Part shown: positions 3,567 through 50,609 of the stretch, one piece after another | How the letters are laid out: every line of letters begins with the position of its first letter | How positions within the stretch are numbered: position 1 is the stretch's first letter | Source of the DNA: a virus | Taxonomy: Duplodnaviria > Caudoviricetes | Length of the DNA: 64,000 bases | IMG/VR virus record: IMGVR_UViG_3300042870_001240 | Reading direction: 5' to 3' (one strand) | Program-made: the position numbers and the translations under genes | Notes under the pieces: model-generated | The model's database searches: none | What the model saw: the letters and a program-made list of their open reading frames with translations, nothing else | What the model was told of the DNA's origin: nothing

Positions 3567-4106
3567 TTAGATGGTAACATCATCTTTATGAGCAAGAACC
3601 TCTTCCACCCCCTCAATATCCTCTAAATAAGCACAACTAGTTGTATTTACCTTACAATTAAGAACCTCTTCAACCTTCAGTTGGCTATACGCCCATCCTA
3701 CGACAGTTGTGGTTACCTTACAGTTGAGGACCTCTTCCACCTGGCAATCTCCATTAAAATAGCCACACCGCGTTGTATTTACCTTACAGTTGAGGACCTC
3801 TTCCACCACTAGAGCGCGTGCTCGATTTATTACCAGCGTTGTATTTACCTTACAGTTGAGGACCTCTTCCACCCATTCGGACATAATCTTATCAAAATCA
3901 GGAGATTCCAAAGAAAAGAGAACAAAAAAACTCTTAAAGAAATCATATCTCCACCATAACTTACCCTCATTTTCATATTCAAAATACCAATACTTATTAT
4001 CTCTATCGATAAAGTATACACTGTCCTTATAAGAAATTATCTCGACCTTGGATAACTCCTTATAAAGTTTTTTGAATATAATATCTTTTAATCTATCTGA
4101 AACCAT
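3567..4106 (-). CDS. Array-bearing small-protein family member (MVSDRLKD type); C-terminus is a translated repeat-spacer array
   Basis: ATG at 4106 behind TATATTTG; paralog of 9453, 9993 and 20900 genes; repeats VEEVLNCKVNTT every 22 aa. Confidence 0.85.
   Translation of the reverse strand: MVSDRLKDIIFKKLYKELSKVEIISYKDSVYFIDRDNKYWYFEYENEGKLWWRYDFFKSFFVLFSLESPDFDKIMSEWVEEVLNCKVNTTLVINRARALVVEEVLNCKVNTTRCGYFNGDCQVEEVLNCKVTTTVVGWAYSQLKVEEVLNCKVNTTSCAYLEDIEGVEEVLAHKDDVTI
3574..3873 (-). CRISPR. CRISPR-like array A1: four full 36-bp repeats plus one degenerate repeat, four 30-bp spacers
   Basis: Repeats at 3640-3675, 3706-3741, 3772-3807, 3838-3873 and degenerate 3574-3609; sense consensus GGTGGAAGAGGTCCTCAACTGTAAGGTAAATACAAC; unique 30-bp spacers. 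Confidence 0.75.
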
Positions 4107-4154
4107 ATTACAAATATAATAATAATAAATGAAATAAAAAATAAAGAACACATC

Positions 4155-4463
4155 TTAACATTCATCGTTATTAAAATCCCAATATTCCATTATCCTTATT
4201 CTGAAGTTTTTCTTAACATATTCAATTAGATATTCTTCCATCTTTGAATATCCATCATCTTCCTCATTTTCAAAATAATGATATAGATAAGTCTTAGCCG
4301 TTGTTAAACATACATAATCATAATACTCTTGAAAATTATCGAAATTACAGATGAACTCATCCACCCCCTCATCAACAATGTCCCATATTAAATCAAAATC
4401 TTCCTCAACCCTCCTGAGAACATATATCAACATATTCTGTTGTTCAGTTATAATGTATTTCAT
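4155..4463 (-). CDS. Hypothetical protein with MKYIITE leader
   Basis: Leader motif and upstream TATTTAT. Confidence 0.75.
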   Translation of the reverse strand: MKYIITEQQNMLIYVLRRVEEDFDLIWDIVDEGVDEFICNFDNFQEYYDYVCLTTAKTYLYHYFENEEDDGYSKMEEYLIEYVKKNFRIRIMEYWDFNNDEC

Positions 4464-4549
4464 ATGTTATGTATTAGTTTATACATAAATATACACATAA
4501 ATAAAAAACCCCACCTATAACAGATGGGGGGTTATATATAAGATATTTT

Positions 4550-5170
4550 TTATAAAAACTCCATCAAAATCTTCGCATCCTCAGACACAAGACGTTTTGT
4601 GTTGTTCTGAAGCAAATCAAATGATTCAAATGAAAACGGACTATCACCAACCCTTGTCATAAATTCAGATTCAACATGAGGCTTAAATTTACCCATCTTC
4701 TCAATCTTACCATATCCAGGATACTCAGAATTATTTGTCCCAATAAGATAATTGTTATCACCACCCTTCTCAATAATCATAACACTATCCTGACAAAATA
4801 ACTCACCAAGCTTGGTCATATTCGAAATAAAATTAGAATCGTCTTTAATATTAACAACAAAGAAACTTTCCTCATTAACCTCAATGGCGTTTTGCTCAGC
4901 AAAATTTTCAATATACGTTCCCTTAACTTTTGTAACACCATAACCAAGATACAATAAAGCAGATTTTAAATGACGATTCCTATTCTTGTTTATCCGAATA
5001 TTAACATATCCCTTGTCATCATCACCACCCAAACAATTTGTTAGACTTTTTCTATATGATGTTATAATCGAACATTCATGCTTTATCAAATGATTATACA
5101 CACGATTAATAGATGATTCATTTAATAATAAAGAAAATCGACTCATTAGGTCTCTCATTTGTTGACTCAT
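4550..5170 (-). CDS. Hypothetical phage protein (weakly DUF3293-like)
   Basis: Likely ATG at 5170; IITSYR...N..LK..L...GYG..KV.G.Y.E...E.SF pattern. Confidence 0.6.
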   Translation of the reverse strand: MSQQMRDLMSRFSLLLNESSINRVYNHLIKHECSIITSYRKSLTNCLGGDDDKGYVNIRINKNRNRHLKSALLYLGYGVTKVKGTYIENFAEQNAIEVNEESFFVVNIKDDSNFISNMTKLGELFCQDSVMIIEKGGDNNYLIGTNNSEYPGYGKIEKMGKFKPHVESEFMTRVGDSPFSFESFDLLQNNTKRLVSEDAKILMEFL

Positions 5171-5302
5171 AGAATAAAAATATATTAATAAATACAAAGT
5201 TAATCAATATTTCAGATTTTTCCCAAAAATTTTTTTTTATATATAGGGAACAATTTAGAACAGGGGGTCATGTTCTTAAAATGATAGGTGGTGCACTTAA
5301 AT

Positions 5303-5398
5303 AAAAGGGGGCGGGGGGATTGACCACGACCGAAGGGAGTTCGGACGGTCTGGACTTATATTAAATAAAAACCCCCACCTGTATTAGAAAGTGGGGGT
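5303..5398. repeat. ~96-bp intergenic element, copy 2
   Basis: Near-identical to 2481-2577. Confidence 0.9.
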
Positions 5399-5466
5399 TA
5401 TTTAAAAAAGTGGGGGTCGTGTTTATAGGAAATAAAAAACCCCTCTGTTGGGAGGGGTAATATTAT

Positions 5467-5892
5467 TTACAGTTTATAATACTTACTAGCCGATTCGTTA
5501 TCAGGGTCAATTGGAATAGGTAATTCTTTACCTATTGTTTTATCGGGATAAGAAATTTTTACTTTTGATACGAAATTTTTATAAGCCTCCGCAAAGTCAC
5601 CACCACCGACACTAACAAGTACTCTACCTGAACCATCTCTTAAATCTATATATCTATCTTTTCCTGGCCCCAACATGTAAACACAAGATTTAAAACCAGG
5701 GGTTTCAACACCAGTACCATATGTTCCTGTCATATTATTACACAATGGTTTATTATATGTCGGTTTTAAAGTTGTATTATTAGGAGTGGCTCCCGTTGTA
5801 GTTTGGGTTGTAACTTGTTCATTTAACAATCGGTTCTCCAATCTTTGATTGGATTCCTGAATGTGTCTTATCTTACTGTAACTTTTGTTCAT
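5467..5892 (-). CDS. Hypothetical protein, MNKSYSKIRHIQESNQRLE leader (paralog of 2587-3018)
   Basis: Shared 78-nt 5' block; terminator hairpin near 5434-5459. Confidence 0.8.
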   Translation of the reverse strand: MNKSYSKIRHIQESNQRLENRLLNEQVTTQTTTGATPNNTTLKPTYNKPLCNNMTGTYGTGVETPGFKSCVYMLGPGKDRYIDLRDGSGRVLVSVGGGDFAEAYKNFVSKVKISYPDKTIGKELPIPIDPDNESASKYYKL

Positions 5893-6084
5893 GGTATTTT
5901 AGTTTATATATAAATATCACATATAACAAAAAACCCCACCTAAAAATATTTCGATTAAAAGTTGACAGTATAAAAAATAATTCGTAATATTTTGTTGTTG
6001 TTGGTTAACATAAAACCATCTCGTCAAACCCAACGGTTAGACCAATGTGGTCGAGGGTAATTATAAACAATTAAAACTTAAAAA

Positions 6085-7188
6085 ATGAAAAAGTTTAGAG
6101 TACGAATGACTAATGTTTCGACAAGATTAGTTGATGGTGAAACACAAAAATGGCTGACATGTGAGGTGTCACTATCTTCCCTAATAGAAGCAAAAAGAAA
6201 ACTAGGGAAAGAATTATTTTCCGTAAATGTTAGAGGATGTTTATCTAACAGTAAACCAACAAGTCAAGAAAGGAAAAAACCTGTATTCAGAGGTATAATG
6301 AATACAATGGACAAGATAAGAAAAAACCCTGAAAAAGCTTATCTGCAAACTATGGGAAATAATGGTTGTACGATAATGTGTGGTTCTATTGAAAGAATAT
6401 CTGGTGATATCTATGAAATCACATTAACCCATGATTACCATGGAATTGGTAACGGTCAACAAACGATTTATATAACCGAGTGGATTGATACAAATTATCC
6501 AATAAGTAGTGATGTAACCATACTATGTAAAATGGCCATTGGACTTTCAGAGGATGACTGTAACGACATATGTAAGGCAAATAACACAAGTAACAAAATC
6601 GATAAGAAAGATATCAAATCCATAGAGTGGAAAAGAATAAGTATGGAACTTAAAACATTGGGTATAACTTTCAATTATAAAAAAGAAAAAGAAGGTCAAT
6701 ACCATATCGACATCTGTGCTGAAAATTACTATAATATGATTGGGGCATATTTCACAAACAAACCTTGGGTAAACGGCCAAGAAGTGGTCGATAAAATTAA
6801 ACCTAACATCATATCAGGAAAAGAGATGATTGAAATGGATAGGGTAAAGAAAATAATTGATGATTGGTTTGAAACCAATGATAATGAGGTTAAAAAACAT
6901 AGTAATAAAATGGATACTACAAGAATGGGTTATTTAAAGAACATTATGATTTCATTATACACGGATGTTAAGATACAAGCAAGAGTAAAACCATTTATAA
7001 AAAAATACGGAGATGTTAAATTTTTTGAACTAATCTTTAAAGTTGTTATAAACACCATAGAAGAAAACGAAACAACTAAAGTATCGTCAAATTATTTTAA
7101 TAAAAAAACATACGAATTATTAAGTAAATCTATTGAAGTAGAAATTTTAGAATCAGAAATTTTAAAATCAGAAACGGTCTTAGTTTAA
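6085..7188 (+). CDS. AIPR-like (ParB/DndB-related fold) protein
   Basis: NNGCTIMC, GNGQQT and ICKANNTSNKI motifs match the AIPR pattern NNGIT...NGxQT...ATNSQN as recalled. Confidence 0.6.
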   Translation: MKKFRVRMTNVSTRLVDGETQKWLTCEVSLSSLIEAKRKLGKELFSVNVRGCLSNSKPTSQERKKPVFRGIMNTMDKIRKNPEKAYLQTMGNNGCTIMCGSIERISGDIYEITLTHDYHGIGNGQQTIYITEWIDTNYPISSDVTILCKMAIGLSEDDCNDICKANNTSNKIDKKDIKSIEWKRISMELKTLGITFNYKKEKEGQYHIDICAENYYNMIGAYFTNKPWVNGQEVVDKIKPNIISGKEMIEMDRVKKIIDDWFETNDNEVKKHSNKMDTTRMGYLKNIMISLYTDVKIQARVKPFIKKYGDVKFFELIFKVVINTIEENETTKVSSNYFNKKTYELLSKSIEVEILESEILKSETVLV

Positions 7189-7388
7189 TTGTAATAAATT
7201 TCCCCCTAACTAATATAGGGGAATTTTTCCAGAAATTTTATTTTACATATAGAGAACATTTTAAAACAAGGGGTCGTGTTTCTATATACATGGGGGAATT
7301 TTTCCAAAAATTTCTATAAACATTTTTTCATACAAATATTTCATTTAAGGGATTATCCCCCCTTTTGACACCCCAAAAACCACTATAT

Positions 7389-7460
7389 GGAGGGGGGATA
7401 CGGGGGAGGGAGGGGGTACCTACCCCATATAGGGGGGTATAGAGGGGACCTCCCCCCATA
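7389..7460 (+). other. G/C-tract cluster (potential G-quadruplex and palindromes)
   Basis: GGGGGG-ATAC-GGGGG-A-GGG-A-GGGGG within 25 nt in an otherwise AT-rich sequence. Confidence 0.6.
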
Positions 7461-7625
7461 AACGAGACGGGACACTATAGGGTCCTCCCCTGTCTGTAAT
7501 CTAATGTATGTGGGTGATGTAATTTTGATGACATATACAAGTAATGTTATTAACATGACATAATGACATTGTTAATAAGATTTGTTAATGGGGGAATAAT
7601 ATATTTGTGTATGTTGGGGATTGTA

Positions 7626-7790: not shown

Positions 7791-7847
7791 AAAAAGATTT
7801 GATAGATACAAATTGTTTATTTAGAATATTATCCCTATCTTCGTATA

Positions 7848-9452: not shown

Positions 9453-9989
9453 ATGGTTAGTGGTAGATTAAAGGATTTGATATTTAAGAAACTGTATAAA
9501 GATTTATCTCATGTAGAAATTATTGAGTATAAGGGTGAGATATGGTTTATTGATAGAAAGGAAAAGTTTTGGTATTTTATATATACTAAGTCTAATGGTC
9601 AGATGTGGTGGAGATATTCTTTCTTTACTCCTTTCTTTCTTCTTTTCTCTTTACCCTCTGATGAATTTACTCACATTCTTTCTTCTTGGGTGGAAGAGGT
9701 CTTAAATTGTAAGGTGACCACAACACTCAAGGTGGCTAATGTTAGGGAAGTTATGGTGGAAGAGGTCTTAAATTGTAAGGTGACTGAAACAGAAACCGTT
9801 ATTAATGGCTACCCCCTATCGGTGGAAGAGGTCCTAAATTGTAGGGTGACTACAACAATGGTGTCTATTGCTTCTTTACCAAAATCGGTGGAAGATGTCC
9901 TAAATTGTAGGGTGACTACAACAATGATAGACAGAGGTATTCCACGTCATGAGGTGGAAGAGGTTTTAAATAATAATATAAATAAATAA
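9453..9989 (+). CDS. Array-bearing small-protein family member (MVSGRLKD type), translated array
   Basis: TATCTTTG upstream; VEEVLNC[KR]VTTT repeats every 22 aa. Confidence 0.85.
   Translation: MVSGRLKDLIFKKLYKDLSHVEIIEYKGEIWFIDRKEKFWYFIYTKSNGQMWWRYSFFTPFFLLFSLPSDEFTHILSSWVEEVLNCKVTTTLKVANVREVMVEEVLNCKVTETETVINGYPLSVEEVLNCRVTTTMVSIASLPKSVEDVLNCRVTTTMIDRGIPRHEVEEVLNNNINK
9689..9970 (+). CRISPR. CRISPR-like array A2: four full 36-bp repeats plus one partial, four 30-bp spacers
   Basis: Repeats at 9689, 9755, 9821, 9887 and partial at 9953; consensus GGTGGAAGAGGTCCTAAATTGTAGGGTGACTACAAC. Confidence 0.75.
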
Positions 9990-9992: not shown

Positions 9993-10688
9993 ATGGTTAG
10001 TGATAGATTAAAGGATTTGATATTTAAGAAACTGTATAAAGATTTATCTCGTGTAGAGATTATTCATTATAAAACTTATATATGGTTTATCGATAGAGAG
10101 GATAAGTGTTGGTATTTCAGGTATGATAAATCTGACGGCACACTCTTATGGAGATATTATTTCTTCATGGATTTTTTTACCCTCTTTACGATGAGTTCCA
10201 TCGAATTTGTTCCCATCATATCTTCTTGGGTGGAACAGGTTATAAATAATAAGGTAACTATAACTCGCAACAAGATGACTTCATTTCCAGACGATATTGA
10301 AGATGCCTTAAATTGTAAAATGGTGGAAGAGGTAATAAATCATAAGGTTTCATTCGACTTAGGATATTCCATTTCTACCCTTTGTGAGGTGGAAGATGTC
10401 CTAAATCATAAGGTAACTAAACCAGATGGTGTCATTGCACTATATAATCCGATTGAAGAGCATCATAAGGTGGGATTAACTTTAGGACCTTCCCTTCCCC
10501 AATATGAAATGGTGGATGAGGTCCTAAATCATAAGGTAACTAAAACAGATGGAGCGATTGCATGGAGCGGTCCGATAGAAGAGGCTCTAAATAATAAGGT
10601 AAATACGACCGAAGATGAAATAGATAACAACATACGTGACCACCTCCTCAACCTTCAGCTGGCTATACGCCCATCCTACGACAGGTGA
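9993..10688 (+). CDS. Array-bearing family member with a degenerate translated array
   Basis: Tandem paralog of the 9453 gene; V[ED]xVLNHKV repeats. Confidence 0.8.
   Translation: MVSDRLKDLIFKKLYKDLSRVEIIHYKTYIWFIDREDKCWYFRYDKSDGTLLWRYYFFMDFFTLFTMSSIEFVPIISSWVEQVINNKVTITRNKMTSFPDDIEDALNCKMVEEVINHKVSFDLGYSISTLCEVEDVLNHKVTKPDGVIALYNPIEEHHKVGLTLGPSLPQYEMVDEVLNHKVTKTDGAIAWSGPIEEALNNKVNTTEDEIDNNIRDHLLNLQLAIRPSYDR
10229..10609 (+). repeat. Degenerate array A3 (eroded 36-bp repeats, internal deletions and a spacer duplication)
   Basis: First repeat 10229-10264, last 10574-10609; two similar DG.IA spacers. Confidence 0.6.
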
Positions 10689-11437: not shown

Positions 11438-12001
11438 TTATGTAAATTGACTTGGAAATAATTTAGATAAGTCAATCGGTATTTCCGTTGTATTCCAAGG
11501 TAATAATAACTTATCAGGTGCTTTATGGTTATAAACCGTTGTCGGGTGATTTATTAAAAACGCCTCCGATTCTCCAATATTAATAATACAATGCCACACA
11601 CCTGTAGGTATTTTTAATGATTGATTGCTCTGTCCACCCAAATAAACTTTTTGAATCTTTTCAAAAGTTTTTGATTCAGGTCTAACATCATATAATACCA
11701 CCAACGCTTCACCACTAATTAAAGTATAACGGTCATCCTTATATTCGTGGAGTCCCCAACCTTTAACTTGATTCGCCCGAATACTAAACATATAACAATA
11801 TACAATTGGTTTTTCCCAAAAAATATCATGACCATTTGTTCCAGAACAAATTTCAAATAACCTACCACGATTGTCAACATGAATTGTTGGTTTTAATATT
11901 ATAACATCTTGAATATTTGAAATGATTGGTGTTGAATCATTGCTGGTCGTTTGTTCCTCTTTAATTGCCCTTTTTAAAGATGGATGTATATTGTTTTCCA
12001 T
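11438..12001 (-). CDS. rmlC: dTDP-4-dehydrorhamnose 3,5-epimerase-like cupin
   Basis: HVDNRGRLFE, VKGWGLH, DVRPESKTF, IPTGVWH motifs. Confidence 0.75.
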   Translation of the reverse strand: MENNIHPSLKRAIKEEQTTSNDSTPIISNIQDVIILKPTIHVDNRGRLFEICSGTNGHDIFWEKPIVYCYMFSIRANQVKGWGLHEYKDDRYTLISGEALVVLYDVRPESKTFEKIQKVYLGGQSNQSLKIPTGVWHCIINIGESEAFLINHPTTVYNHKAPDKLLLPWNTTEIPIDLSKLFPSQFT

Positions 12002-12005: not shown

Positions 12006-13598
12006 TTAGTTAAGATAATTTAAATCTTCATCCTCTTCTAACCCATTGTAGGCGTAAGTTTGGAAGTTAGCGTTTGTATCAACCCAAGCCATTGACCTGA
12101 ATGTAACACCATCATTAATCCTAAGTTTCTCTATCTCTAATTGTTTTAACTTATGATGTAATTCTTTTTTTATAAGTTGGATTTCTTTATCTTTGGAGTA
12201 TGCTAAATTTTCTGATTCATCGGTATCATTAATTAAATCATATAATTCATACTGAGTCTCGTAACTATTTAATGCGTCAAAATAATAAGTATACTTCCAT
12301 CCTTTAGTACGAATGGTTCTTAATCTATTACAAGTTTTAACTGATGACGATAAATTGTTTGACCCTGATTTAGTATCATCAAATGTGAATAGGATTTCAT
12401 TTTGTGCTGGTTCGTTATTCTCGATAATTGGTAGTAAGTTTACACCTCTACAATCAGATGGAACAGGAAGATTAACAAAATTAGATAACGTTGGTAATAT
12501 ATCAATTAACGTAGCAAGTTCGTGGGATGATTTATGTTTCAATGTTGTTGGAAATACAACAGGGTTTGATATGACCATTGGTATTCTAATTGCTTCCTCA
12601 TAAGCAACGAACGCTTTTTGTCTCATTCCACCATGTGACATTCCCATTTCTCCATGGTCTGCCAATCTAATAACGATGGCATCATTTGCCAAGTTAATAC
12701 CATCTTCTTTATTATATAGAACATCAATTACTTTACCTATCTCACCATCAATCTTTTTAAGTAGGAACGCATAAAAGTTTAAGTAATCTAACTTCATATC
12801 ATCATTCTTTAATACCCCTAATAGACCATCTGCGGCAATATTTGTTTGGAATTGGGCAATAGGTTTTGCGTTTTCTATTAAATTTTCATTCACAGTTGTT
12901 GGTAGATTTGGAATGTCTCTTCCTGTATAGTCAGGCTCATTATATCCATACTGTATTGAGTTTGGATATCCTAACACATCATGCGGATTAACTAAACTTA
13001 ACACTATACAATATGGTTGCATGTCACCATTTTTTCTTCTAACTTTAACTTGTTCAAGATATTCCATGGTCTGTTCGATATACATGGCATCATGATTGGC
13101 AAATCCTCCACCAAAATTTTCGGGTTTCGCGTCTTCGCCAGCGTCAGGACCAACCCATCCTTTAAATCCAAATAGTGCTATGTCTTTTGCTAATGGGTCA
13201 CCACCATCGGTGCCCTTACTAAGATGCCATTTTCCTCTGTATTGAACATCATAACCAATACCATCCAATATTCTTCCTATATTTGGTGTTTGGTTATTTA
13301 ATTGTGGTTCTACAGGTGAAAAAACACCTCCTGATGTTAATGTTTGTGTTACTTGATGTTGAGCAGGATAAGTTCCTGTGAACAATGTTGAGCGGCTAGG
13401 AGAACACATACAACTGTTACAAAAAGCTCTTTCAAAACTAAATCCATTTTCTTTTAAAAAGGTTAGTGTTGGTAGATTTTCTTTTTCCCAATTGTCAGGA
13501 AAATGTTGTGTGGCTCTTTCTTGGTCGGTGATGATAAATATAATATCTGGTTGAGTAGGTAACTCAGATAAATTTTGTTTAAAGTTATTTTGTTTCAT
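12006..13598 (-). CDS. Cys-type sulfatase (formylglycine-dependent), no signal peptide
   Basis: PDIIFIITDQ, CSPSRSTLFTG (CxPxR), GKWHL, ADHGEM motifs. Confidence 0.9.
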   Translation of the reverse strand: MKQNNFKQNLSELPTQPDIIFIITDQERATQHFPDNWEKENLPTLTFLKENGFSFERAFCNSCMCSPSRSTLFTGTYPAQHQVTQTLTSGGVFSPVEPQLNNQTPNIGRILDGIGYDVQYRGKWHLSKGTDGGDPLAKDIALFGFKGWVGPDAGEDAKPENFGGGFANHDAMYIEQTMEYLEQVKVRRKNGDMQPYCIVLSLVNPHDVLGYPNSIQYGYNEPDYTGRDIPNLPTTVNENLIENAKPIAQFQTNIAADGLLGVLKNDDMKLDYLNFYAFLLKKIDGEIGKVIDVLYNKEDGINLANDAIVIRLADHGEMGMSHGGMRQKAFVAYEEAIRIPMVISNPVVFPTTLKHKSSHELATLIDILPTLSNFVNLPVPSDCRGVNLLPIIENNEPAQNEILFTFDDTKSGSNNLSSSVKTCNRLRTIRTKGWKYTYYFDALNSYETQYELYDLINDTDESENLAYSKDKEIQLIKKELHHKLKQLEIEKLRINDGVTFRSMAWVDTNANFQTYAYNGLEEDEDLNYLN

Positions 13599-20584: not shown

Positions 20585-20893
20585 ATGGAATATAATATTA
20601 CACCAGAACAATTAGACCGATTAATTAAACCTTATTTTGATAAAGAATTTAAACACGCTAAGTGGAGTGAATATTATTTTTCAGATGGTGGAGGACTATG
20701 GTATGGGTTTATAAATCAGGATAACGTTATGTTAGTTGGTCACCCATCTAATGACAATGATTTTTACTTTACAAATGGTCAATATTTTCATGATATGTGG
20801 TACTTATTTAGTGTTAGACATCAAGAATTTAATGAGTCTATGGGTAGATACATTAAAAAGAAATATGGTTGTAAATTTGAAAGAATTATGTAA
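20585..20893 (+). CDS. Small-protein family member (MEYNITPE leader)
   Basis: TATTTAT upstream; family aromatic pattern. Confidence 0.7.
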   Translation: MEYNITPEQLDRLIKPYFDKEFKHAKWSEYYFSDGGGLWYGFINQDNVMLVGHPSNDNDFYFTNGQYFHDMWYLFSVRHQEFNESMGRYIKKKYGCKFERIM

Positions 20894-20899: not shown

Positions 20900-21580
20900 T
20901 TATTTTATTGATTCTATTAAAACCCCATTTTGAATGATGTCTTTTGGGAAAAAATCACGCTTTGACAATTCGGTATATTTCACCCCATTTTGAATGGTAT
21001 CTTCAACAAAGGAGTCGTTCAAAAAATTATAGATATTGGCGTGTTTCACCCCAATTTGAATGGTATTTTCAACGACAACGTTTGTAATGAACTCTACTCC
21101 TGTGGTGTTCTTCACACCATTTTGAATGGTATTTTCAACCTCTCTATCAAAATCTTCCGACCAATTATACTCATTAGGAATTTCATTTGTCCACGTATTT
21201 TTAATACCATCTTCAATAACTCTCCCAACAATAGGAATATTACCACCAATAACCCCTTCGGTTTCTTTTATACCGTTTTCAATAATACTAATAACCCCTT
21301 CTTCAAAAACAAACTTATTACCACTAATCGATAGTGGTTTATTCAAAATATTCTTAGTAAACCAATCAGTAATATATTCACTATTCTCAGTCACATTCAA
21401 TGACACAAAATTAAAAACATTATTAAATAATGAGTAATTATACCATAAGACATTCTCTTTAGTATATTCAAAAACCCATCTTTTTTCTTCGGTAAAAATA
21501 AACCACATTGACCCATTGTGATTGTAAATGTCAACACCTTTTAATTCTTTGTTTATTAATTGATTTATTGCTCGTTTCAT
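20900..21580 (-). CDS. Array-bearing small-protein family member, translated array
   Basis: N-terminal ~80 aa align with the MVSDRLKD paralogs; VENTIQNGVKxT repeats. Confidence 0.8.
   Translation of the reverse strand: MKRAINQLINKELKGVDIYNHNGSMWFIFTEEKRWVFEYTKENVLWYNYSLFNNVFNFVSLNVTENSEYITDWFTKNILNKPLSISGNKFVFEEGVISIIENGIKETEGVIGGNIPIVGRVIEDGIKNTWTNEIPNEYNWSEDFDREVENTIQNGVKNTTGVEFITNVVVENTIQIGVKHANIYNFLNDSFVEDTIQNGVKYTELSKRDFFPKDIIQNGVLIESIK
20972..21139 (-). CRISPR. CRISPR-like array A4: three clear 36-bp repeats with two 30-bp spacers, plus degenerate flanking units
   Basis: Repeats at 20972-21007, 21038-21073, 21104-21139; sense GTTGAAAATACCATTCAAAATGGTGTGAAGAACACC. Confidence 0.65.
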
Positions 21581-22628: not shown

Positions 22629-22967
22629 ATGAAATACATAATTACAGAAAATAAGTTAGATAATGTTGTTGATAAATTTATAACCAATAAATTTAATAAA
22701 TTATCAACATTTAAAAGTAAAATATTTCCTGTTGGATTATTTTATATTGACAATCATGGTAATATTATTGCTGAAGTAATTTTTCCTCCTCACGGAAGAG
22801 GTGTAATAATTGATTGGGAATTATGGAAAGAAGTGTCAGATTTTTTTGGGTTTGAGACAATTAAGGAACAACAAGAATCAATGTCTAAATGGGCCGACCA
22901 ATACTTTGGTTTTAAAGACTCATTAATTGATTATAGAGATTTTGTTGAAACAATTGAAGATTTATAA
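22629..22967 (+). CDS. Small-protein family member, MKYIITE leader
   Basis: Leader; LW..VSDFFGF...SKW pattern. Confidence 0.75.
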   Translation: MKYIITENKLDNVVDKFITNKFNKLSTFKSKIFPVGLFYIDNHGNIIAEVIFPPHGRGVIIDWELWKEVSDFFGFETIKEQQESMSKWADQYFGFKDSLIDYRDFVETIEDL

Positions 22968-31605: not shown

Positions 31606-32151
31606 ATGTCAGGAAAGAAATCCATAGAAGATATTATAAAATCGTTAACCAAATTACTTGATTCAATGGTTATTAAAGGTCGAGTTAAGTTTAGAGTTGA
31701 CATTGACCCTTACACAAGTGAGTATTATAATAGACAGGATGAAGAATATACTATCCATTACCCTATCACTTATACATTTACTAATGACCATGCAAAGTAC
31801 TGGGAGGATTCTCCACAGTTTTCTCAAGAATATAATGACCTAATTAATTCAATTGATTTTGATAACCTTTCCGATAAATTGGAAGAGATTCCTAAGTATT
31901 TTTTATTCGGTGAGTCTAGTGAGATAACAATTAGATGGGAACATTATAATACAGACACATATAAACCGTTGTTGGATGCTTTAGGTCTTGAACAAATCCC
32001 TTATGTAACTAAATTTACAATATACCAACCAAACATAAACATAATATTATCTAATGACTACATCGTTGAAAAGGGAGACTTACAAGTAGATTTAGGTTTT
32101 GCTTTTGATAACATAGTAATGTATTCAGACGATATCTCAGGAGACAAATGA
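31606..32151 (+). CDS. Hypothetical protein (181 aa)
   Basis: ATATTTAT at 31594-31601. Confidence 0.7.
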   Translation: MSGKKSIEDIIKSLTKLLDSMVIKGRVKFRVDIDPYTSEYYNRQDEEYTIHYPITYTFTNDHAKYWEDSPQFSQEYNDLINSIDFDNLSDKLEEIPKYFLFGESSEITIRWEHYNTDTYKPLLDALGLEQIPYVTKFTIYQPNINIILSNDYIVEKGDLQVDLGFAFDNIVMYSDDISGDK

Positions 32152-32474
32152 AATATATAATAACAGAAAATAAGTTAAACAATGTCGCGTTAAGTTGGAT
32201 GAATCAAAACTTCAGTCCATACCAGTTAGAAATTTTTGAATCTGAAAAATATCCAAATTCTGTTTTTTTTAGAAAAAATGGAAAAGTTGTGATGCAACAA
32301 GATAAAAAATCTAAGTTTTTTTGGTTTGATTATGATAAAATTTGGTCATTTTTTAAATTGTTTTTTGGTATGCAATACCCACAAATACAAGACGTTCTGA
32401 ACTACTGGTTGGAGGATACTTTCAAATTAGAGGGTTATACACCTAATCCCTACGAATTAACATATACACTTTAG
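32148..32474 (+). CDS. Array-bearing small-protein family member (MKYIITE...YWLEDTFKLEGYTP)
   Basis: Close paralog of the 50295 and 48889 genes; ends inside mini-array A5. Confidence 0.85.
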   Translation: MKYIITENKLNNVALSWMNQNFSPYQLEIFESEKYPNSVFFRKNGKVVMQQDKKSKFFWFDYDKIWSFFKLFFGMQYPQIQDVLNYWLEDTFKLEGYTPNPYELTYTL

Positions 32475-32495
32475 TTGGAGAATACCCTCAAATTA
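32408..32495 (+). CRISPR. Mini-array A5: repeat - 30-bp spacer - truncated repeat
   Basis: GTTGGAGGATACTTTCAAATTAGAGGGTTATACACC (32408-32443), spacer 32444-32473, GTTGGAGAATACCCTCAAATTA. Confidence 0.65.
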
Positions 32496-41985: not shown

Positions 41986-41987
41986 AA

Positions 41988-45860: not shown

Positions 45861-45882
45861 ATTATTTATTTTTATTTATTTG

Positions 45883-45955
45883 TAGTCAGGACAGGATTCG
45901 AACCTATACAATAGAGCAATCGCTCAAAGCGTTTAACCAATTTCGCCACCTGACT
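45883..45955 (-). ncRNA. tRNA-like RNA 1 (acceptor, D and T arms; non-canonical 6-nt loop in place of the anticodon loop)
   Basis: AGTCAGG/CCTGACT stem, TGGCGAAATTGGTTAAACGC D arm, ATAGGTTCGAATCCTGT T arm. Confidence 0.7.
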
Positions 45956-46032: not shown

Positions 46033-46138
46033 TGGTAGTCAGGACAGGAATCGAACCTGTAACTTCTTTGTCATACAGAGTGCCATTAGCTGTTATCTCA
46101 ACCTTGATGGTGATACGTTACCACTACGCCACCTGACT
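46033..46138 (-). ncRNA. tRNA-like RNA 2 (encoded CCA; ~54-nt insert replacing the anticodon/variable region)
   Basis: Same acceptor stem; ACAGGTTCGATTCCTGT T arm; ends CCTGACT-A-CCA; TATATTTG at 46168-46175. Confidence 0.7.
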
Positions 46139-46203
46139 ATATTTTCCTTCTGTGTTTTATCTTATAACAAATATACGAACTTTATTTCGTATTTCCAAAT
46201 TCT

Positions 46204-46476: not shown

Positions 46477-46482
46477 GTTATT

Positions 46483-46716
46483 CTATTTAAAGTATTCATC
46501 ATAAATATCATCTGTGCTAACATTACCCCACTTTTTACCATACTTTACAAAACTAATTCCTTCCCTATGAAATTCCTCTAAAAGTTCTTTCTCCACGGAA
46601 AGCAATTGCTCAAGCTTCTCGTTGATTTCTTGAATATTCTTATCAGTTAATGTTTTTGCAGCGTTTGATTCAGTTGCGAACCAATCTCTAAATGTGGTTA
46701 TTGGTGTTTTTTTCAT
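46483..46716 (-). CDS. Hypothetical protein (77 aa)
   Basis: ORF. Confidence 0.6.
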   Translation of the reverse strand: MKKTPITTFRDWFATESNAAKTLTDKNIQEINEKLEQLLSVEKELLEEFHREGISFVKYGKKWGNVSTDDIYDEYFK

Positions 46717-46750
46717 GATATATTTTTCATTTATACTTTTATTTTTTTAG

Positions 46751-46879
46751 TAGTCAGGACAGGACTTGAACCTGTGATAGTATCCATCAGCACATTGATA
46801 AAGCAGATACTCCGTTGTACTTCTGTCAGAAAGTTTTTACGTCAATGTTTCGGTGCGTGTTCCAACTCGCCACCTGACT
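46751..46879 (-). ncRNA. tRNA-like RNA 3 (~80-nt structured insert)
   Basis: Same acceptor stem, D and T arms; insert contains ACATTGA/TCAATGT stem; TATCTTTG at 46886-46893 directly upstream. Confidence 0.7.
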
Positions 46880-46885
46880 ATAATA

Positions 46886-46893
46886 CAAAGATA
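46886..46893 (-). promoter_or_regulatory. Bacteroidota housekeeping-sigma -7 element (TAnnTTTG); representative of more than 12 copies
   Basis: TATCTTTG immediately upstream of tRNA-like RNA 3; the same motif precedes the 1862, 4106, 9453, 22292, 30079, 35927, 40334, 41392, 47970, 48774, 49641 and 63643 starts. Confidence 0.75.
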
Positions 46894-47007
46894 ATAAAAA
46901 AATTGGGGAATAAAAATAATTCTCCATTTTTTTATTTTTAATCCAAACTTTAAAACATAAAAAACCCCTCTTTGTTGGAGGGGTCTTAATAAGATATTTT
47001 TAATAAA

Positions 47008-47325
47008 TTACTTACCAATAATTAAATCATCAAAGTTTAATTTTCCCATACCATCATTAGATTCTTTACTGGTAAACTCATCATACATAAATGATTGAAC
47101 CACAGATGTAATACTTTGTTCCGCTTGGGCTATCTTAGTTTCCTGCCAGTCTTCAAGTTGTTCTCCGTCTTCCATTTCTTCCCACATCTTATAAGCTAAT
47201 GTCGCAATGGTGAACAACTGTTGCTTTGACATGTAAGACCCCTCTTCTTGATTTTCAGTCAAGGAATTTTTAACTCGGTTAGTTAATTTTTCCAATTGTT
47301 TTTCCGATATAATAATATTTTTCAT
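47008..47325 (-). CDS. Hypothetical protein with MKNIIISE leader
   Basis: SYMSKQQL...LEDWQETKIAQA module. Confidence 0.7.
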   Translation of the reverse strand: MKNIIISEKQLEKLTNRVKNSLTENQEEGSYMSKQQLFTIATLAYKMWEEMEDGEQLEDWQETKIAQAEQSITSVVQSFMYDEFTSKESNDGMGKLNFDDLIIGK

Positions 47326-47448
47326 GTTAGTCTTTATCTATAAATATACAACAGTAACATAAAAAAGGAGACGATTTCTCATCTCCTTAATTTGGGGCCG
47401 ATAATTCAGCGAATCCACCACCTTATTTTTCTAAACAAGGAAACAAAA

Positions 47449-47682
47449 CTATTCAGAAATAAGACTTGCATTATCATTTGTAATGACGCTATCAACATTT
47501 GATTGGTTTTCAACAATATGTTCGGTTTGAGTTGGTTTTGATAAATAATCATAACCCTCTTTCAACTTAATCACCGTAAAGGCAAACATAAGAATAAGTC
47601 CTATGAAAATCAACTTAACAACTTGTTTCCAAGTTTTAAATAAGATGTATAAAATTACCGCTAAAAATATAAGAAATCCCAT
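47449..47682 (-). CDS. Small membrane protein
   Basis: Two hydrophobic segments. Confidence 0.6.
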   Translation of the reverse strand: MGFLIFLAVILYILFKTWKQVVKLIFIGLILMFAFTVIKLKEGYDYLSKPTQTEHIVENQSNVDSVITNDNASLISE

Positions 47683-47694
47683 AATTGTTTATTT

Positions 47695-47970
47695 TTATTT
47701 TGTTACTAATGCTTCTACTTTACTTTTCATGTGGTCAGCCAAACCATAACTGTCTACCGATGTTAATACGATTGAATCAACCAAGTGTTTGAATGGTATG
47801 TGTACTAAGAAGTCCACCCCATTGAAGAATGTTAAGTCGTTCTTCAGTTCCAAACATCCGTGGATTATTTTAAGGAACAATTTGAACTGTGTTCCATCCA
47901 CGAATGTTTCGTCAACCAATTTACCGAATTTCTCGTTCTCAATTCTGATGTTGTATGTTGAAGTTGTCAT
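47695..47970 (-). CDS. Hypothetical protein (91 aa)
   Basis: TAAATTTG upstream. Confidence 0.7.
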   Translation of the reverse strand: MTTSTYNIRIENEKFGKLVDETFVDGTQFKLFLKIIHGCLELKNDLTFFNGVDFLVHIPFKHLVDSIVLTSVDSYGLADHMKSKVEALVTK

Positions 47971-48003
47971 ATCTATTTGATTTATTCTACAAATTTACAA
48001 AAA

Positions 48004-48774
48004 CTATTTCATATTTCCTAATGCCTCGATAACAGAATCAGCACTATTTCCTCCCATAGATACTTGAGAGATAGTGAACACGATTTTACCATCAACCTCT
48101 GCGTAGTTAAGGATAACCGCACTTCCGTTAGGATTTTTTACCACGATTTGGTTTCTTGTAGTGTTAATATTATTAACTTTGTTACCACCAAAATCAATGT
48201 CAGAATTTCTGTAACGTTTGAACGCTTCACCGAAGGCGCTCATACGAACTTCGTTATCTTTAATTCTTCGGTTATGAACATCCCACATTCCTTTAACGTA
48301 GTCCTCAACAATTGTTACAACAGGTTTACCTGTTTTGTAATAGGTCTTAGTATCATCACTACCAACTTTAACTCTTAACTTATAACCATGACTCTTACTT
48401 CTCCAACCACCCCTTGGAGTTGTTGTGTGCTCTTCAACATAAACAGTAATACGATTGTTAGACTCACCTTCAGGTAGTTCACCCTTGTAAACAATTTTAG
48501 AACTGTTATAGTTCTCGGAAATTTCCCCAATTTTAACTTGGTTATAACCAATACGGTTACCTTGAGAGTCTAATTTATAAACATTTACAGGCCAAGTTTG
48601 AATATTCTGAGTTTTAACCAACTCAAATTTATCGGAATGTTTTTGAATTTCTTTGAAGTACCTATCCCACTCAGACTCAATTTTTGTCTGTTCAGATTTG
48701 AAATTATCCGCAGTTTTTTGAGCTGAGGCGATATTGTCTTTGATGTGTTTTTGTTGGTGTTCTTTTAGGGTCAT
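48004..48774 (-). CDS. Hypothetical protein (256 aa)
   Basis: TATATTTG upstream. Confidence 0.75.
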   Translation of the reverse strand: MTLKEHQQKHIKDNIASAQKTADNFKSEQTKIESEWDRYFKEIQKHSDKFELVKTQNIQTWPVNVYKLDSQGNRIGYNQVKIGEISENYNSSKIVYKGELPEGESNNRITVYVEEHTTTPRGGWRSKSHGYKLRVKVGSDDTKTYYKTGKPVVTIVEDYVKGMWDVHNRRIKDNEVRMSAFGEAFKRYRNSDIDFGGNKVNNINTTRNQIVVKNPNGSAVILNYAEVDGKIVFTISQVSMGGNSADSVIEALGNMK

Positions 48775-48853
48775 GGTAGAAGTTTTTGTGTTTGTTTTAC
48801 AAATATAAGCACATTATTTTAATTGGCCAAATTTATTTAAAGACTAAATATCC

Positions 48854-48955
48854 GGTGTTAGACCCTTCAAATTATAGGTCTCTTCCAACTATAAAGAACG
48901 CAGGTTATTATTTGAAAAAGGTGTTAGACCCTTTAAATTATAGGTCTCTTCCAAC
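48854..48955 (-). CRISPR. Mini-array A6: two 36-bp repeats (1 mismatch) around one 30-bp spacer
   Basis: 48854-48889 and 48920-48955; sense GTTGGAAGAGACCTATAATTT[A/G]AAGGGTCTAACACC. Confidence 0.75.
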
Positions 48956-49197
48956 CAGTATGTTATAATACCCTTCATTTGTTCATATTCCAACCCAAAA
49001 AAGGATTTTAAAAACGACCAAATTTCATTGTAATTTATATAAACATACCCATTTTTTTTATCCTGATAATAATAAAATAATGGTAATCTATCTTCATTAA
49101 CATAAATTGTTCTATCACCCTTAACTATTGGTTTTAAATTACCAAATTTATCGTTAAGCCATGTTATCACGACCTTATCTAATTTATTTTTAATCAT
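48889..49197 (-). CDS. Array-bearing small-protein family member (YWLEETYNLKGLTP)
   Basis: Paralog of 50295 and 32148; stop codon formed at the spacer/repeat junction. Confidence 0.85.
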   Translation of the reverse strand: MIKNKLDKVVITWLNDKFGNLKPIVKGDRTIYVNEDRLPLFYYYQDKKNGYVYINYNEIWSFLKSFFGLEYEQMKGIITYWLEETYNLKGLTPFSNNNLRSL

Positions 49198-49215
49198 TTT
49201 ATCTTTAATTCTTTA

Positions 49216-49641
49216 TTATATAGATTGTTTGGATTCCCTATCTAAATCTCGTAATTTAATAGAATTTCTTTTATCCCATAGTTTTTTACCTTTAGCCAAC
49301 ACAATATCAACCTTCAATAATCCCCTGTCATTCTCATATAATACATGAGGAATGATTGTATATCCCTTAACCAACTCTGATTCAAGTTTTCTTAATTGTT
49401 TTTTCTTCAATAACAATTTTTTATCGGTAGCAATATTATCATTCCCAATTCCTTGGATAAGAACCCCTTTCATATATAACTCCCCATTATTAAAATAACA
49501 GAACGAGTCAGTCATAGAGACTTTCCCTTCTCGGATTCTCTTAACCTCAACACCAGTCAATTTAATACCCGCCAAGAATGTTTCCTCAATAAAATACTCA
49601 AACTTAACTTTTTTATTCTCAATACGAACTTTTATCTTCAT
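49216..49641 (-). CDS. smpB: SsrA-binding protein SmpB
   Basis: ENKK.KFEYFIEETFLAGIKLTGVEVKRIR, KKLLL.KKQLRKL, LAKGKKLWDKR motifs; ATG at 49641 behind TATCTTTG. Confidence 0.92.
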   Translation of the reverse strand: MKIKVRIENKKVKFEYFIEETFLAGIKLTGVEVKRIREGKVSMTDSFCYFNNGELYMKGVLIQGIGNDNIATDKKLLLKKKQLRKLESELVKGYTIIPHVLYENDRGLLKVDIVLAKGKKLWDKRNSIKLRDLDRESKQSI

Positions 49642-49791
49642 AAACACAAAGATAAATATAAAAAACAAAAAACCCTAACAAATTTTTACATTCACCAGGG
49701 TTTAATATTAACCAACTAAGAAAGGGGTCGTTGGGACTATTTAGGTTATAAATATAACAAATTTTTTAAAAAGAAAAAGATATTTATAAAT

Positions 49792-50133
49792 ATGATATTA
49801 AAAATCAACGATAACAAATTTAAAGTGATGGTAATGATGACTCAAAAAGATACTCAAAAGGGTATGATGGGTCGTGACTTTGATTCTAACTTTAATGGTA
49901 TGTTATTTCTAATGGACAAAGGTCCTCACGGTTTTTGGATGAAGGATTGTATTATCCCATTGGATATTATTTTTATTGACGGTAATACAATAACTAAAAT
50001 ACACCATAGTTGTCCTCCATGTAAATCGGAAGACTGTCCTAGTTATGTCGGAACAGGAGATACTATTTTAGAACTTAGAGGCGGTACTTGCGGGGAATTA
50101 AGTATTAAAGAGGGGGATAAGATTCTATACTAA
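49792..50133 (+). CDS. DUF192 family protein
   Basis: GMMGR...GMLF...FWMKDC.IPLDIIFID...LELRGG. Confidence 0.85.
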   Translation: MILKINDNKFKVMVMMTQKDTQKGMMGRDFDSNFNGMLFLMDKGPHGFWMKDCIIPLDIIFIDGNTITKIHHSCPPCKSEDCPSYVGTGDTILELRGGTCGELSIKEGDKILY

Positions 50134-50349
50134 TTTGAGAGTATCCTCCAACTGGATGTAATGGAGCGAATTGCGAAGCGTGGTGTATAACCCTTTAATT
50201 TGAGAGTCTCTTCCAACTAGTCATGCTTTCCGCTGAACCGTCTTTCAGGTGTATAACCCTTTAATTTGAGAGTCTCTTCCAACTACTAACGCATTCAAGA
50301 CTGGAAATGGCTCGGTGTATAACCCTTTAATTTGAGAGTCTCTTCCAAC
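50131..50349 (-). CRISPR. CRISPR-like array A7: three identical 36-bp repeats plus a truncated fourth; spacers 30/30/29 bp
   Basis: 50182-50217, 50248-50283, 50314-50349 identical; sense GTTGGAAGAGACTCTCAAATTAAAGGGTTATACACC. Confidence 0.85.
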
Positions 50350-50609
50350 CAGTAACTCAGAAATTCCTGTATTTCTTGGTATTCCATACCAAAAAACGAT
50401 TCAAAAAATGACCAAATTTCATCATAATCAAACAAAAAATCTTTATTTTTTTTATCCTGCTCCATCACAACTTCTCCATTTTTTTTAAAAAAAATTGAAT
50501 TAGGATATTTTTCAGATTTAACAATTTCTAACTGGTCTAAACCAAAGTTTTTGTTCATCCAACTTAACACGACATTGTTTAACTTATTTTCCGTTATTAT
50601 ATATTTCAT
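50295..50609 (-). CDS. Array-bearing small-protein family member (MKYIITE...YWLEETLKLKGYTP)
   Basis: Final codons are the first repeat of A7. Confidence 0.85.
   Translation of the reverse strand: MKYIITENKLNNVVLSWMNKNFGLDQLEIVKSEKYPNSIFFKKNGEVVMEQDKKNKDFLFDYDEIWSFFESFFGMEYQEIQEFLSYWLEETLKLKGYTPSHFQS

Follow-up and report, generated by a model that had tools for sequence, protein, structure and literature searches.

Candidate CRISPR-type repeat-spacer arrays fused to a family of small genes in a lake phage of a probable Bacteroidota host

Within a 64-kb stretch (the window) of a lake phage genome of roughly 290 kb, probably infecting Bacteroidota, at least seven CRISPR-like repeat-spacer arrays are fused to small genes of one paralogous family, the last 36 bases of the small gene (its last 12 codons) doubling as the first repeat of the array. 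All seven loci reported in an initial annotation were recovered, with boundaries displaced by a few bases at most (Table 1), and the gene-array linkage is strict (7/7). Constant 36-nt repeats with spacers of 29-32 nt characterize the seven loci and also 38 array entries from the window and related phages, a count in which some records appear twice. No previous account of genes fused to arrays in this manner was found in the literature. There is about an even chance that these are genuine CRISPR-type arrays, anchored to a gene, written by a host integrase and serving counter-defence mimicry.

Table 1. Positions of the small genes, their arrays and associated features in the window
Feature	Position	Strand	Evidence or composition
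A1 gene, class II small protein (N-domain, then translated array)	3567..4106	-	ORF; family HMM E 1e-87
A1 array	3574..3873	-	Four full repeats and a degenerate terminal one; four 30-nt spacers, all in frame
A1 repeats	3838-3873, 3772-3807, 3706-3741, 3640-3675; degenerate terminal 3574-3609	-	
A2 gene, class II	9453..9989	+	ORF, family HMM; close orthologues P0001-P0007
A2 array	9689..9988	+	Four full repeats and a terminal repeat; four 30-nt spacers, in frame
A2 repeats	9689-9724, 9755-9790, 9821-9856, 9887-9922; terminal 9953-9988	+	
A3 gene, class II	9993..10688	+	ORF; eroded array 10229-10609
Inverted 29/30 copy of A1 spacer 3, partial repeat alongside	10654..10683	-	
A4 gene, divergent family member, translated repeats	20900..21580	-	Family HMM E 5e-21
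A4 repeats	20972-21007, 21038-21073, 21104-21139	+	Strand is the VI-B-like one, antisense to the gene
Distant family paralogue, no repeat-like C-terminus, no array	22629..22967	+	
A5 gene, class I	32148..32474	+	ORF, family HMM
A5 mini-array	32408..32495	+	Repeat 32408-32443, 30-nt spacer 32444-32473, truncated repeat from 32474
A6 gene, class I	48889..49197	-	ORF, family HMM
A6 array	48854..48955	-	Repeats 48920-48955, 48854-48889; 30-nt spacer 48890-48919
A7 gene, class I	50295..50609	-	ORF; AlphaFold2 pLDDT 91
A7 array	50131..50349	-	Three base-identical 36-mers and a truncated fourth; spacers 30, 30 and 29 nt
A7 repeats	50314-50349, 50248-50283, 50182-50217; truncated fourth 50131-50152	-	

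The first 36-bp repeat codes for the C-terminus and opens with the third base of a Trp codon that is invariant across the family. Anchoring at this Trp had been proposed in the initial annotation and is retained, but its A1-A3 repeat was one base out and starts within the codon, running from the last G to an ACAAC end. The loci, described there as sharing a 36+30 geometry, fall into two classes. In class I (A5-A7), identical repeats continue beyond the stop codon and the arrays are non-coding; the A7 ORF, for example, ends at a TGA inside spacer 1. Class I relatives have spacers of 29-32 nt with frequent stops, and in class I tails read-through, frameshift and stop are mixed at random. In class II (A1-A3), every spacer is 30 nt long and free of in-frame stops, which indicates that these arrays are translated. 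The 28 unique class II spacers, all of exactly 30 nt, contain no in-frame stop compared with 17-23 stops in the other frames, and there is a weak codon-position signal; the stop codon of both A1 and A2 sits within the degenerate terminal repeat. The rule that every unit is in frame and stop-free thus holds for class II and fails for class I. At A4, three clear units with a 66-nt period lie distal to degenerate ones, as described previously, but the VI-B-like strand is antisense to the gene. The inverted copy of A1 spacer 3 (Table 1) is a leftover of recombination between the A1 and A3 arrays in inverted orientation.

Judged by their sequence, the repeats are diverged relatives of type VI-B (Cas13b) repeats. 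Compared with 31 real VI-B repeats collected beside cas13b, the phage repeats are identical at 22-28 of 36 bases. Class II repeats, read in the sense orientation, reach 24-28/36 (VI-B repeats average 25.4 among themselves) and keep 15-16 of 18 VI-B-conserved positions, with covariance-model hits of 19-24 bits (E 0.016-0.15), every top hit being an array repeat. Within the window, the fourth repeat of A1 scores highest (22.9 bits, E 0.024). In class I the likeness is weaker (22-23/36 bases, 11-13/18 positions, 10-12 bits). All 15 covariance-model hits in the relatives are array repeats, as are eight of the nine window 36-mers with at least 24/36 VI-B identity, among about 128,000 tested. This pattern is far beyond chance, while likeness to II-C repeats is only at the level of shuffled sequences. 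The kinship to VI-B repeats claimed in the initial annotation is therefore upheld, and the Bergeyella repeat given there proved exactly right (L030, adjoining a Cas13b gene). Its use of the 36+30 geometry as a mark of type VI-B has to be given up, since Bacteroidota II-C arrays share that geometry.

The inner hairpin, which the same annotation read as a sign that RNA structure is under selection, does not exceed shuffled sequences in stability. Folding energies are -2.2 to -6.8 kcal/mol (z -0.9 to +1.3) for the phage repeats and -9.2 to -11.2 kcal/mol (z -2.7 to -3.4) for true VI-B repeats; by these energies, the full-length hairpin recognized by Cas13b is not kept. Inner-stem substitutions affect one side only (G-U wobble) and are not compensatory, and synonymous sites in the first repeat show no constraint beyond that seen elsewhere in the gene. 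With folds this weak and no added synonymous constraint, selection on RNA structure finds no support. The repeat sequence follows the protein sequence rather than staying conserved by itself, and the lack of additional synonymous-site constraint suggests that the VI-B likeness may be held mainly by the protein.

The arrays otherwise resemble the type VI-B arrays of Bacteroidota in having a 36-bp repeat and a 30-bp spacer, in most of the VI-B-conserved positions (a GTTG-like start, TTG.A.GGTA and, in class II, the ACAAC end), in a variable end that adjoins the upstream gene and in terminal repeats that are degenerate, just as bacterial VI-B arrays decay at the end far from cas13b. They differ in lacking a nearby cas13b, in placing the repeat inside a protein-coding gene, in having lost the hairpin, and in being many short arrays per genome, some of them translated, rather than one long array.

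Spacer content varies between phages and does so with a polarity. Related lake phages carry, at the same locus, identical repeats and flanks with different spacers (29-32 nt), and the locus syntenic with A6 holds one to three differing spacers in relatives. A metagenome variant with identical flanks has an A7 array lacking 50182-50313, exactly 132 nt or two repeat-spacer units. Across 200 pairs of close orthologues whose arrays are non-identical, the gene-proximal cassette is common to 48 (24%) and the distal cassette to 166 (83%); common cassettes are colinear in 143 pairs, and no pair has them in a changed order. Among 592 cassettes in 120 homologues, 426 are unique. The spacers are mutually unrelated while the repeats between them are base-identical.

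One spacer has a 29/29 match in three independent metagenome contigs, within a plsC-like gene of a Bacteroidota chromosome, in the neighbourhood of ppk1, ppx and genes whose products carry T9SS sorting domains. The GC content of the protospacer contig (36%) and the mean for the spacers (37%) compare with 31% for the phage. Of about eight spacers searched against large collections, this was the only one with a protospacer. It runs in the same sense as the mRNA of the plsC-like gene (n=1), so RNA transcribed from the phage gene would be unable to pair with this message. None of 60 spacers matched own or related phage DNA outside the arrays (390 kb), where roughly four would have been predicted had half of the spacers come from the phage, and the array regions tested had no match in cultured phages. 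For ordinary coding repeats, the initial annotation had expected spacers invariant across relatives and devoid of protospacers; instead, the spacers differ and a perfect protospacer exists.

These data already contradict the proposal that the arrays are simply 22-residue tandem repeats in coding sequence, diversified by selection without any part for CRISPR machinery. The perfect frame of class II and its codon-position signal would fit such repeats. Identical class I repeats past a stop codon, the 29-32-nt spacers of relatives, unrelated spacers between base-identical repeats, a perfect protospacer in a bacterial gene and the polarized, VI-B-like organization would not, and this explanation is extremely unlikely.

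The arrays are very probably the work of a CRISPR integrase that operates in trans. In this model the small gene would stand in for the leader, its final 12 codons forming the first 36-bp repeat. New spacers of about 30 bp would enter at the gene-near end and duplicate the repeat, the hallmark of integration by Cas1-Cas2; units would be lost through deletion between repeats, and at least some spacers would be copied from a Bacteroidota chromosome. The absence of cas genes noted in the initial annotation was borne out: no Cas family was found among the 62 ORFs of the window, the largest of which encodes 590 aa, and no Cas13b is present in it. Neither Cas1 nor Cas13b was found in the records of four relatives, each 8-19% complete, and a pattern search of IMG/VR revealed no Cas13b. 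As no cas gene was found, the integrase would presumably be supplied by the host. An exact-pattern search for the class I or class II repeat gave no match in 185,579 species genomes, a set from which the true host may be missing. By analogy, the likeliest source may be a II-C adaptation module, as in Flavobacterium columnare, where II-C Cas1-Cas2 fills VI-B arrays in trans and about half of the new VI-B spacers are derived from the host genome (PMC8092290). This offers a ready mechanism for a VI-B-type array without its own cas1 or cas2, although in F. columnare the array lies on the host chromosome beside cas13b, whereas in the present case integration would be into phage DNA in the course of infection.

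In the AlphaFold2 model of A7, where the domain is confidently folded, the repeat is predicted to encode the final strand together with the end of helix 3. With this essential strand encoded by the first repeat, the remainder of a class I array would be free non-coding DNA. Class II arrays would be translated as a disordered insert; spacers persist there only if they are 30 nt long and stop-free, probably because the protein needs a C-terminal element encoded past the array.

Short arrays without adaptation or effector genes are known from viral genomes, as mini-arrays and as compact arrays of huge phages, and are presumed to use host Cas proteins; in huge phages, spacers matching the host chromosome are on record (PMC11656645; PMC7162821). 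The phage arrays share this brevity and this lack of cas genes. Viral mini-arrays of the Faure/Medvedeva type, however, have repeats identical to those of the host and mostly target related viruses, whereas no matching host repeat was found here, none of the spacers matches related phages, and each array is joined to a gene belonging to a paralogous family.

Such precedents of cas-less phage arrays targeting hosts or rival phages (PMC7162821; PMC11656645) raise the possibility that these are working guide arrays, the gene transcript being a pre-crRNA processed by host Cas13b or a phage effector and aimed at host transcripts or competing phages. The VI-B-like class II repeat lies in the sense orientation of the gene, and no spacer matches the phage itself, which is the usual mark of active interference. 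Nevertheless, the hairpin is eroded, the sole mapped spacer has the sense of its target mRNA, neither related nor cultured phages were matched in the searches above, and translation of class II arrays is unexpected for a crRNA precursor. Cas13b is also rare in the sampled Bacteroidota genomes (3/401, compared with 70/401 for Cas9). A guide function is thus considered unlikely.

A second possibility is that the gene end resembles a VI-B repeat by chance and that off-target insertions by host Cas1-Cas2 are tolerated at the 3' end as neutral scars. Nivala et al. reportedly described in 2018 'neo-CRISPR' loci that arose by off-target Cas1-Cas2 integration. The lack of nucleotide-level constraint beyond the protein, the missing hairpin and the randomly mixed class I tails are all consistent with neutrality. 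Against this, the likeness and the activity persist over three sub-families only 20-30% identical, with roughly 1,200 homologues; about half of random class II insertions would truncate the protein; and synonymous changes could end integration free of cost, yet have not. Moreover, the array-less paralogue shows that the domain can do without the repeat-encoded C-terminus. Neutral scarring therefore appears rather improbable.

Alternatively, the variable protein itself may be selected, with class II spacer capture writing hypervariable 10-residue loops between constant 12-residue units. Multi-core RiPP precursors such as cyanobactin PatE similarly alternate constant recognition segments with hypervariable short cores in one ORF. 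We know of no RiPP precursor gene with identical repeats past its stop codon or with cores copied from another genome. Diversification would agree with the stop-free, strictly 30-nt class II spacers and with the high proportion of unique cassettes. However, modelling predicts disorder for the repeat region, read-through would follow equally well from having to reach a C-terminal element, class I has no such selection, and no function could be assigned to the protein from family or fold searches. It is thus very doubtful that diversification is what is selected, and equally doubtful that the phage family uses the host CRISPR integrase as a protein-sequence writer, each capture adding a random 10-residue loop to a 22-residue repeat tail. 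If true, Cas1-Cas2 would be generating diversity in a viral protein, with no guide role for the arrays.

There is next to no likelihood that the small protein binds RNA from its own 3' end as a compact protein and guide-RNA system. The strict linkage at seven loci and a fold without known match would be compatible with it, but the N-terminal domain of about 100 residues matches no nuclease or RNA-binding family or fold, and the repeat tracks the protein sequence instead of being conserved independently.

Mimicry or decoy activity is the function that we favour, at slightly below an even chance. Many highly copied leader-repeat look-alikes may soak up the host VI-B/II-C pathway, through loaded integrase and/or Cas13b, and the arrays would then not be kept for guides. 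RNA anti-CRISPRs (Racrs), which are solitary non-coding repeats that retain Cas-binding structure (PMC10651486), are likewise phage-borne repeat look-alikes that could occupy Cas proteins; the phage repeats described here are, in contrast, coding, spacer-gaining and poorly folding. In experiments, overexpressed extra crRNA also competes for Cas13b, lowering defence about 1000-fold (PMC13187072). An RNA-level decoy is weakened by the loss of the hairpin recognized by Cas13b, and a pure integration sink by the shortfall of phage-derived spacers. The gene-array fusion represents a new form of viral cas-less arrays.

All seven small-gene loci reported in the initial annotation (A1–A7) are real in the window, and each repeat-spacer array belongs to a small gene whose N-terminal domain of ~100 residues is homologous between loci. 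Family HMMs match all seven genes, and one Trp is invariant across the family. The first repeat starts at the third base of this Trp codon and codes for the last 12 residues of the domain. In A7, a TGA stop lies within spacer 1, so that two perfect repeats are in untranslated DNA. In A4, it is the strand antisense to the gene that resembles the repeats of CRISPR type VI-B (the Cas13b type), and the repeats decay with the opposite polarity. A separate small gene precedes the A4 repeats on the plus strand, and the A4 gene reads the same repeats from the opposite strand. The eighth, distant paralogue begins with a leader, MKYIITENK, that is common to many unrelated proteins of the window. Within the tail of the A3 gene, an inverted spacer copy with an adjoining partial repeat suggests that the A1 and A3 arrays, which have opposite orientations, once underwent inversion or recombination with each other.

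Arrays of the seven loci and other features, with positions in the window unless a contig is named
Feature	Position	Strand	Description
A1, A2 arrays			Four full repeats and four 30-nt spacers each; degenerate terminal repeat holds the stop
A3 array			Eroded
A4 array	20972-21139	+	Three clear units, distal to degenerate units; strand given is the VI-B-like orientation
A5, A6 arrays			One-spacer versions
A7 array			Three 36-mers identical in every base, plus a truncated fourth; spacers 30, 30 and 29 nt long
Small gene preceding A4 repeats	20585-20893	+	Separated from the repeats by ~78 nt
Eighth, distant paralogue	22629-22967	+	Neither repeat-like C-terminus nor array
Spacer remnant in A3 gene tail	10654-10683		29/30 inverted copy of A1 spacer 3
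SmpB	49216-49668	-	Phage-encoded (Pfam, 3e-40); between A6 and A7
tRNA-Gln and adjacent Rfam match	46036-46138; 45882-45955	-	tRNA-Gln called by both tools; the 103-nt Rfam tRNA match beside it (46036-46138) not called by ARAGORN
DHH-like protein	50624-52030	-	468 residues, weak DHH-family match; directly upstream of the A7 gene, same strand
Paralogous pair	2587-3018; 5467-5892	-	Common N-terminus MN(R/K)SYSKIRHIQESNQRLE.RLLNEQ; C-terminal halves unrelated
dTDP-sugar epimerase	11438-12001		Pfam match
Sulfatase	12006-13598		Pfam match
Protospacer (L153)	6339-6367		Contig Ga0214919_10000137, bacterial

The loci fall into two classes, with A4 divergent. In class I (A5–A7), the protein ends in WLEETLKLKGYTP, the repeat is of the form GTTGGAAGAG...ACACC, and identical repeats run past the stop codon; class I arrays of related phages have spacers of 29–32 nt, stops and frameshifted read-through. 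In class II (A1–A3), the protein C-terminus is WVEEVLNCKVxTT, the true repeat is GGTGGAAGAGGTC...ACAAC, and spacers are exclusively 30 nt. No in-frame stop occurs in 28 unique class II spacers, as against 17–23 stops in the other frames; since a random 30-mer stays open only about one time in two, class II read-through is selected. The lengths of class II homologues rise in 22-residue steps (156, 178, 200, 222).

In a confident AlphaFold2 model of the A7 protein (pLDDT 91), the chain runs from one helix through four strands and two helices to a last strand, and the repeat codes for this strand and for the end of helix 3. The N-terminal domain of the A2 protein is predicted to have the same layout. 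A2 residues 87–150, which comprise repeats and spacers, are modelled as disordered, and the last cassette (repeat-spacer unit) and terminal repeat form a strand and helix (pLDDT ~70). This predicted ordered end may be the reason that class II has to remain in frame, a requirement that class I does not share. A Pfam search of the seven proteins gave no family match, and fold searches of the PDB (Foldseek and VIA-wide), AFDB clusters and the ESM Atlas returned uncharacterized viral relatives only, with no solved or annotated fold.

Comparison with related phages reveals rapid turnover of the arrays. At the locus syntenic with A6, repeats and downstream flank are identical across the window and five relatives, which carry one to three spacers each, none of them common; identity of spacers across related phages, which would have pointed to ordinary coding repeats, is therefore not found. 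A variant contig from one lake-water sequencing run joins 50181 directly to 50314, with 0 differences over 534 flanking bases; this A7 variant is without exactly 132 nt, corresponding to the two gene-proximal units, and keeps the distal spacer alone. Close A2 orthologues all have the distal cassette MIDRGIPRHE, differ in their proximal cassettes and reuse middle cassettes in differing subsets. Of 200 close-orthologue pairs with a cassette in common but arrays that are not identical, 48 share the proximal cassette and 166 the distal one, an asymmetry that is large, though the pairs are not independent; shared cassettes stand in the same order in 143 pairs and out of order in 0. Gain at the gene end, internal loss and a degenerate last repeat are the behaviour of a CRISPR array. 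The arrays are real, polarized and changing on short time scales.

The family comprises ~1,200 distinct homologues in metagenomes; class II has ~1,000 homologues. The phage itself was detected in 17 or more lake-water sequencing runs dated 2020–2024, and a pattern scan of IMG/VR located class I repeats in eight contigs and class II repeats in three. No similar phage was found in INPHARED.

The type of the repeats was assessed against VI-B reference repeats taken from beside cas13b genes (NCBIfam NF038190), of which 31 distinct examples were aligned; the Bergeyella repeat given in the initial annotation is exact. In the sense orientation, class II repeats share 24–28 of 36 bases with the nearest VI-B repeat, where VI-B repeats share a mean of 25.4 bases with one another, and class I repeats share 22–23 of 36. 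Both classes share 18–21 bases with the II-C (Cas9-type) repeats of Bacteroidota, which is the level of shuffled sequence, and a II-C origin is ruled out on this basis. Class II keeps 15–16 of the 18 VI-B positions that are at least 90% conserved, compared with a mean of 4.8 for random 36-mers of the window. With a VI-B covariance model, the window's best match scores 22.9 bits (E 0.024) and the best match in relatives 23.9 bits (E 0.016), and the scores are individually marginal; all 15 matches in relatives with E up to 1 are array repeats. The likeness lies mostly in the 3' half of the repeat. Judged by their sequence, the phage repeats are relatives of those of type VI-B. The earlier proposal of a VI-B link is supported by repeat sequence, and the geometry of 36 plus 30 nt that was also offered for it proves nothing alone, because Bacteroidota II-C arrays have the same geometry. 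Rfam at gathering thresholds gave tRNAs only and no CRISPR-DR family, and a search for these repeats in bacterial genomes found none.

Selection on RNA structure, which had been suggested from the repeats, is not borne out. True VI-B repeats form a full hairpin of -9.2 to -11.2 kcal/mol (z -2.7 to -3.4; structure supplied by hand after RNAalifold gave none, and supported by pair counts), whereas the values for the phage repeats are -2.2 to -6.8 kcal/mol (z -0.9 to +1.3). Codon pairs for the same residue differ in 24% (class II) and 28% (class I) of cases in the first repeat, and in 34% and 19%, respectively, in the upstream domain, which indicates no extra nucleotide-level constraint between genes. 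The identity of repeats within an array would be the product expected from repeat duplication at each insertion.

The origin of one spacer could be traced. The 22-nt core of a spacer from the A6-type array of a related phage (L001), scanned against JGI metagenomes, matched its own contig and three others; in those three, all 29 nt of the spacer are matched without a difference, outside any array. The gene containing the protospacer has the HxxxxD and PEGTR motifs typical of 1-acylglycerol-3-phosphate acyltransferases. Further genes on the 117-kb contig code for a polyphosphate kinase (PPK), an exopolyphosphatase, an M23 peptidase and a pair of proteins that carry T9SS sorting domains; this gene content, with PPK identity of up to 55% to those of sampled Bacteroidota, identifies it as a Bacteroidota chromosome, probably that of the host of this phage group. 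Its GC content is 36%, compared with a spacer mean of 37% and 31% for the phage. A Bacteroidota chromosome is therefore the source of at least one spacer. The sequence TAAA is located 1 nt 3' of this protospacer. The spacer and the protospacer mRNA are of the same sense, so base-pairing between that mRNA and a transcript running from the phage gene would be impossible.

Other spacer searches gave no further protospacer: two array regions had none in INPHARED, three spacer cores gave at most self-matches in IMG/VR, and one other core had none in the JGI metagenomes. A 22-nt match of A7 spacer 2 to a Treponema MAG is attributed to chance, as it does not extend by one base on either side and 0.07 such matches are expected. 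When 60 spacers were compared with 390 kb of own and related phage DNA outside arrays, the only match was the array remnant in the A3 gene tail; about four would be expected if half of the spacers were phage-derived, as in the Flavobacterium columnare experiment cited below. A self-derived origin of the spacers is rejected on this result.

The absence of a cas gene noted initially holds for the window: Pfam detected no Cas family in its 62 ORFs of at least 125 residues, the largest having 590. This result rests on Pfam, as the PADLOC matches listed (25 of 69 families) were filled by methyltransferase models. Neither Cas1 nor Cas13b was found in the IMG/VR records of four relatives, which are 8–19% complete, implying a genome of ~290 kb; a phage-encoded Cas protein elsewhere in the genome, outside the window, is possible. 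A phage-borne Cas13b was also sought by pattern search, and no relative was found in IMG/VR. Among 401 sampled Bacteroidota genomes, Cas13b occurs in 3 and Cas9 in 70. Other Pfam matches in the window include a DNA N6/N4 methylase, an S-adenosylmethionine lyase, an AIPR domain, a glutamine synthetase, a pterin-4a-carbinolamine dehydratase and two GT2 glycosyltransferases. The smpB gene has the same position between array loci in two related phages (L001 and L006), and no tmRNA was found in the window. The 103-nt Rfam match could represent either a tRNA-like element or a tRNA that carries an insert.

Spacers are probably integrated by host Cas1-Cas2 at the junction of the Trp codon and the repeat, with duplication of the 36 bp. 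Integration at this junction would keep the small gene intact and alter only downstream sequence. The model for such filling in trans is F. columnare, in which the Cas1-Cas2 of a II-C system fills the VI-B array and about half of the new spacers are derived from the host genome (PMC8092290). Class I genes have an A-run ~100 nt upstream of the first repeat, as do many bacterial VI-B leaders; this is only a resemblance.

The favoured function is counter-defence by mimicry, in which the loci would compete for Cas13b loading or draw off loaded integrase as a sink. Overexpression of an extra crRNA is reported to reduce Cas13b defence ~1000-fold (PMC13187072). The lost repeat hairpin argues against an RNA decoy. 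A pure integrase sink is difficult to reconcile with the lack of phage-derived spacers, a lack which hints that some effector uses the spacers. Pure neutrality, under which the arrays would have no function, is opposed by sites that are many, persistent and, in class II, costly.

The loci are filed as viral cas-less CRISPR arrays. Earlier work has described compact phage arrays that lack cas genes and in some cases have spacers identical in sequence to parts of host chromosomes (PMC7162821), as well as mini-arrays and solitary repeats (PMC11656645, PMC10651486); the present arrays differ from these in that no matching host repeat is known. Neither these accounts nor the open-access literature searched contained an array fused to a gene so that its repeat forms part of a protein's structure, a genome with an entire paralogous family of gene-array fusions, or translated arrays.

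CRISPR arrays are regarded as non-coding sequence, and the programs that find them reject repeats within ORFs. This filter would hide gene-fused arrays. Here, a single 36-bp segment encodes the C-terminus of a folded protein and at the same time serves as a spacer-accepting repeat, spacers are acquired in a phage genome without a visible cas gene, and there are many array sites per genome, with one sub-family translating its arrays; these features were not found reported together. If the loci are decoys, they would be a new kind of anti-CRISPR, acting on VI-B/II-C systems at the stage of adaptation or of crRNA loading; if they supply guides, they would be a new phage route to using host Cas13b. 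Either way, the spacers provide links to hosts, and the family is a natural test bed for the leader and repeat needs of Bacteroidota Cas1-Cas2.
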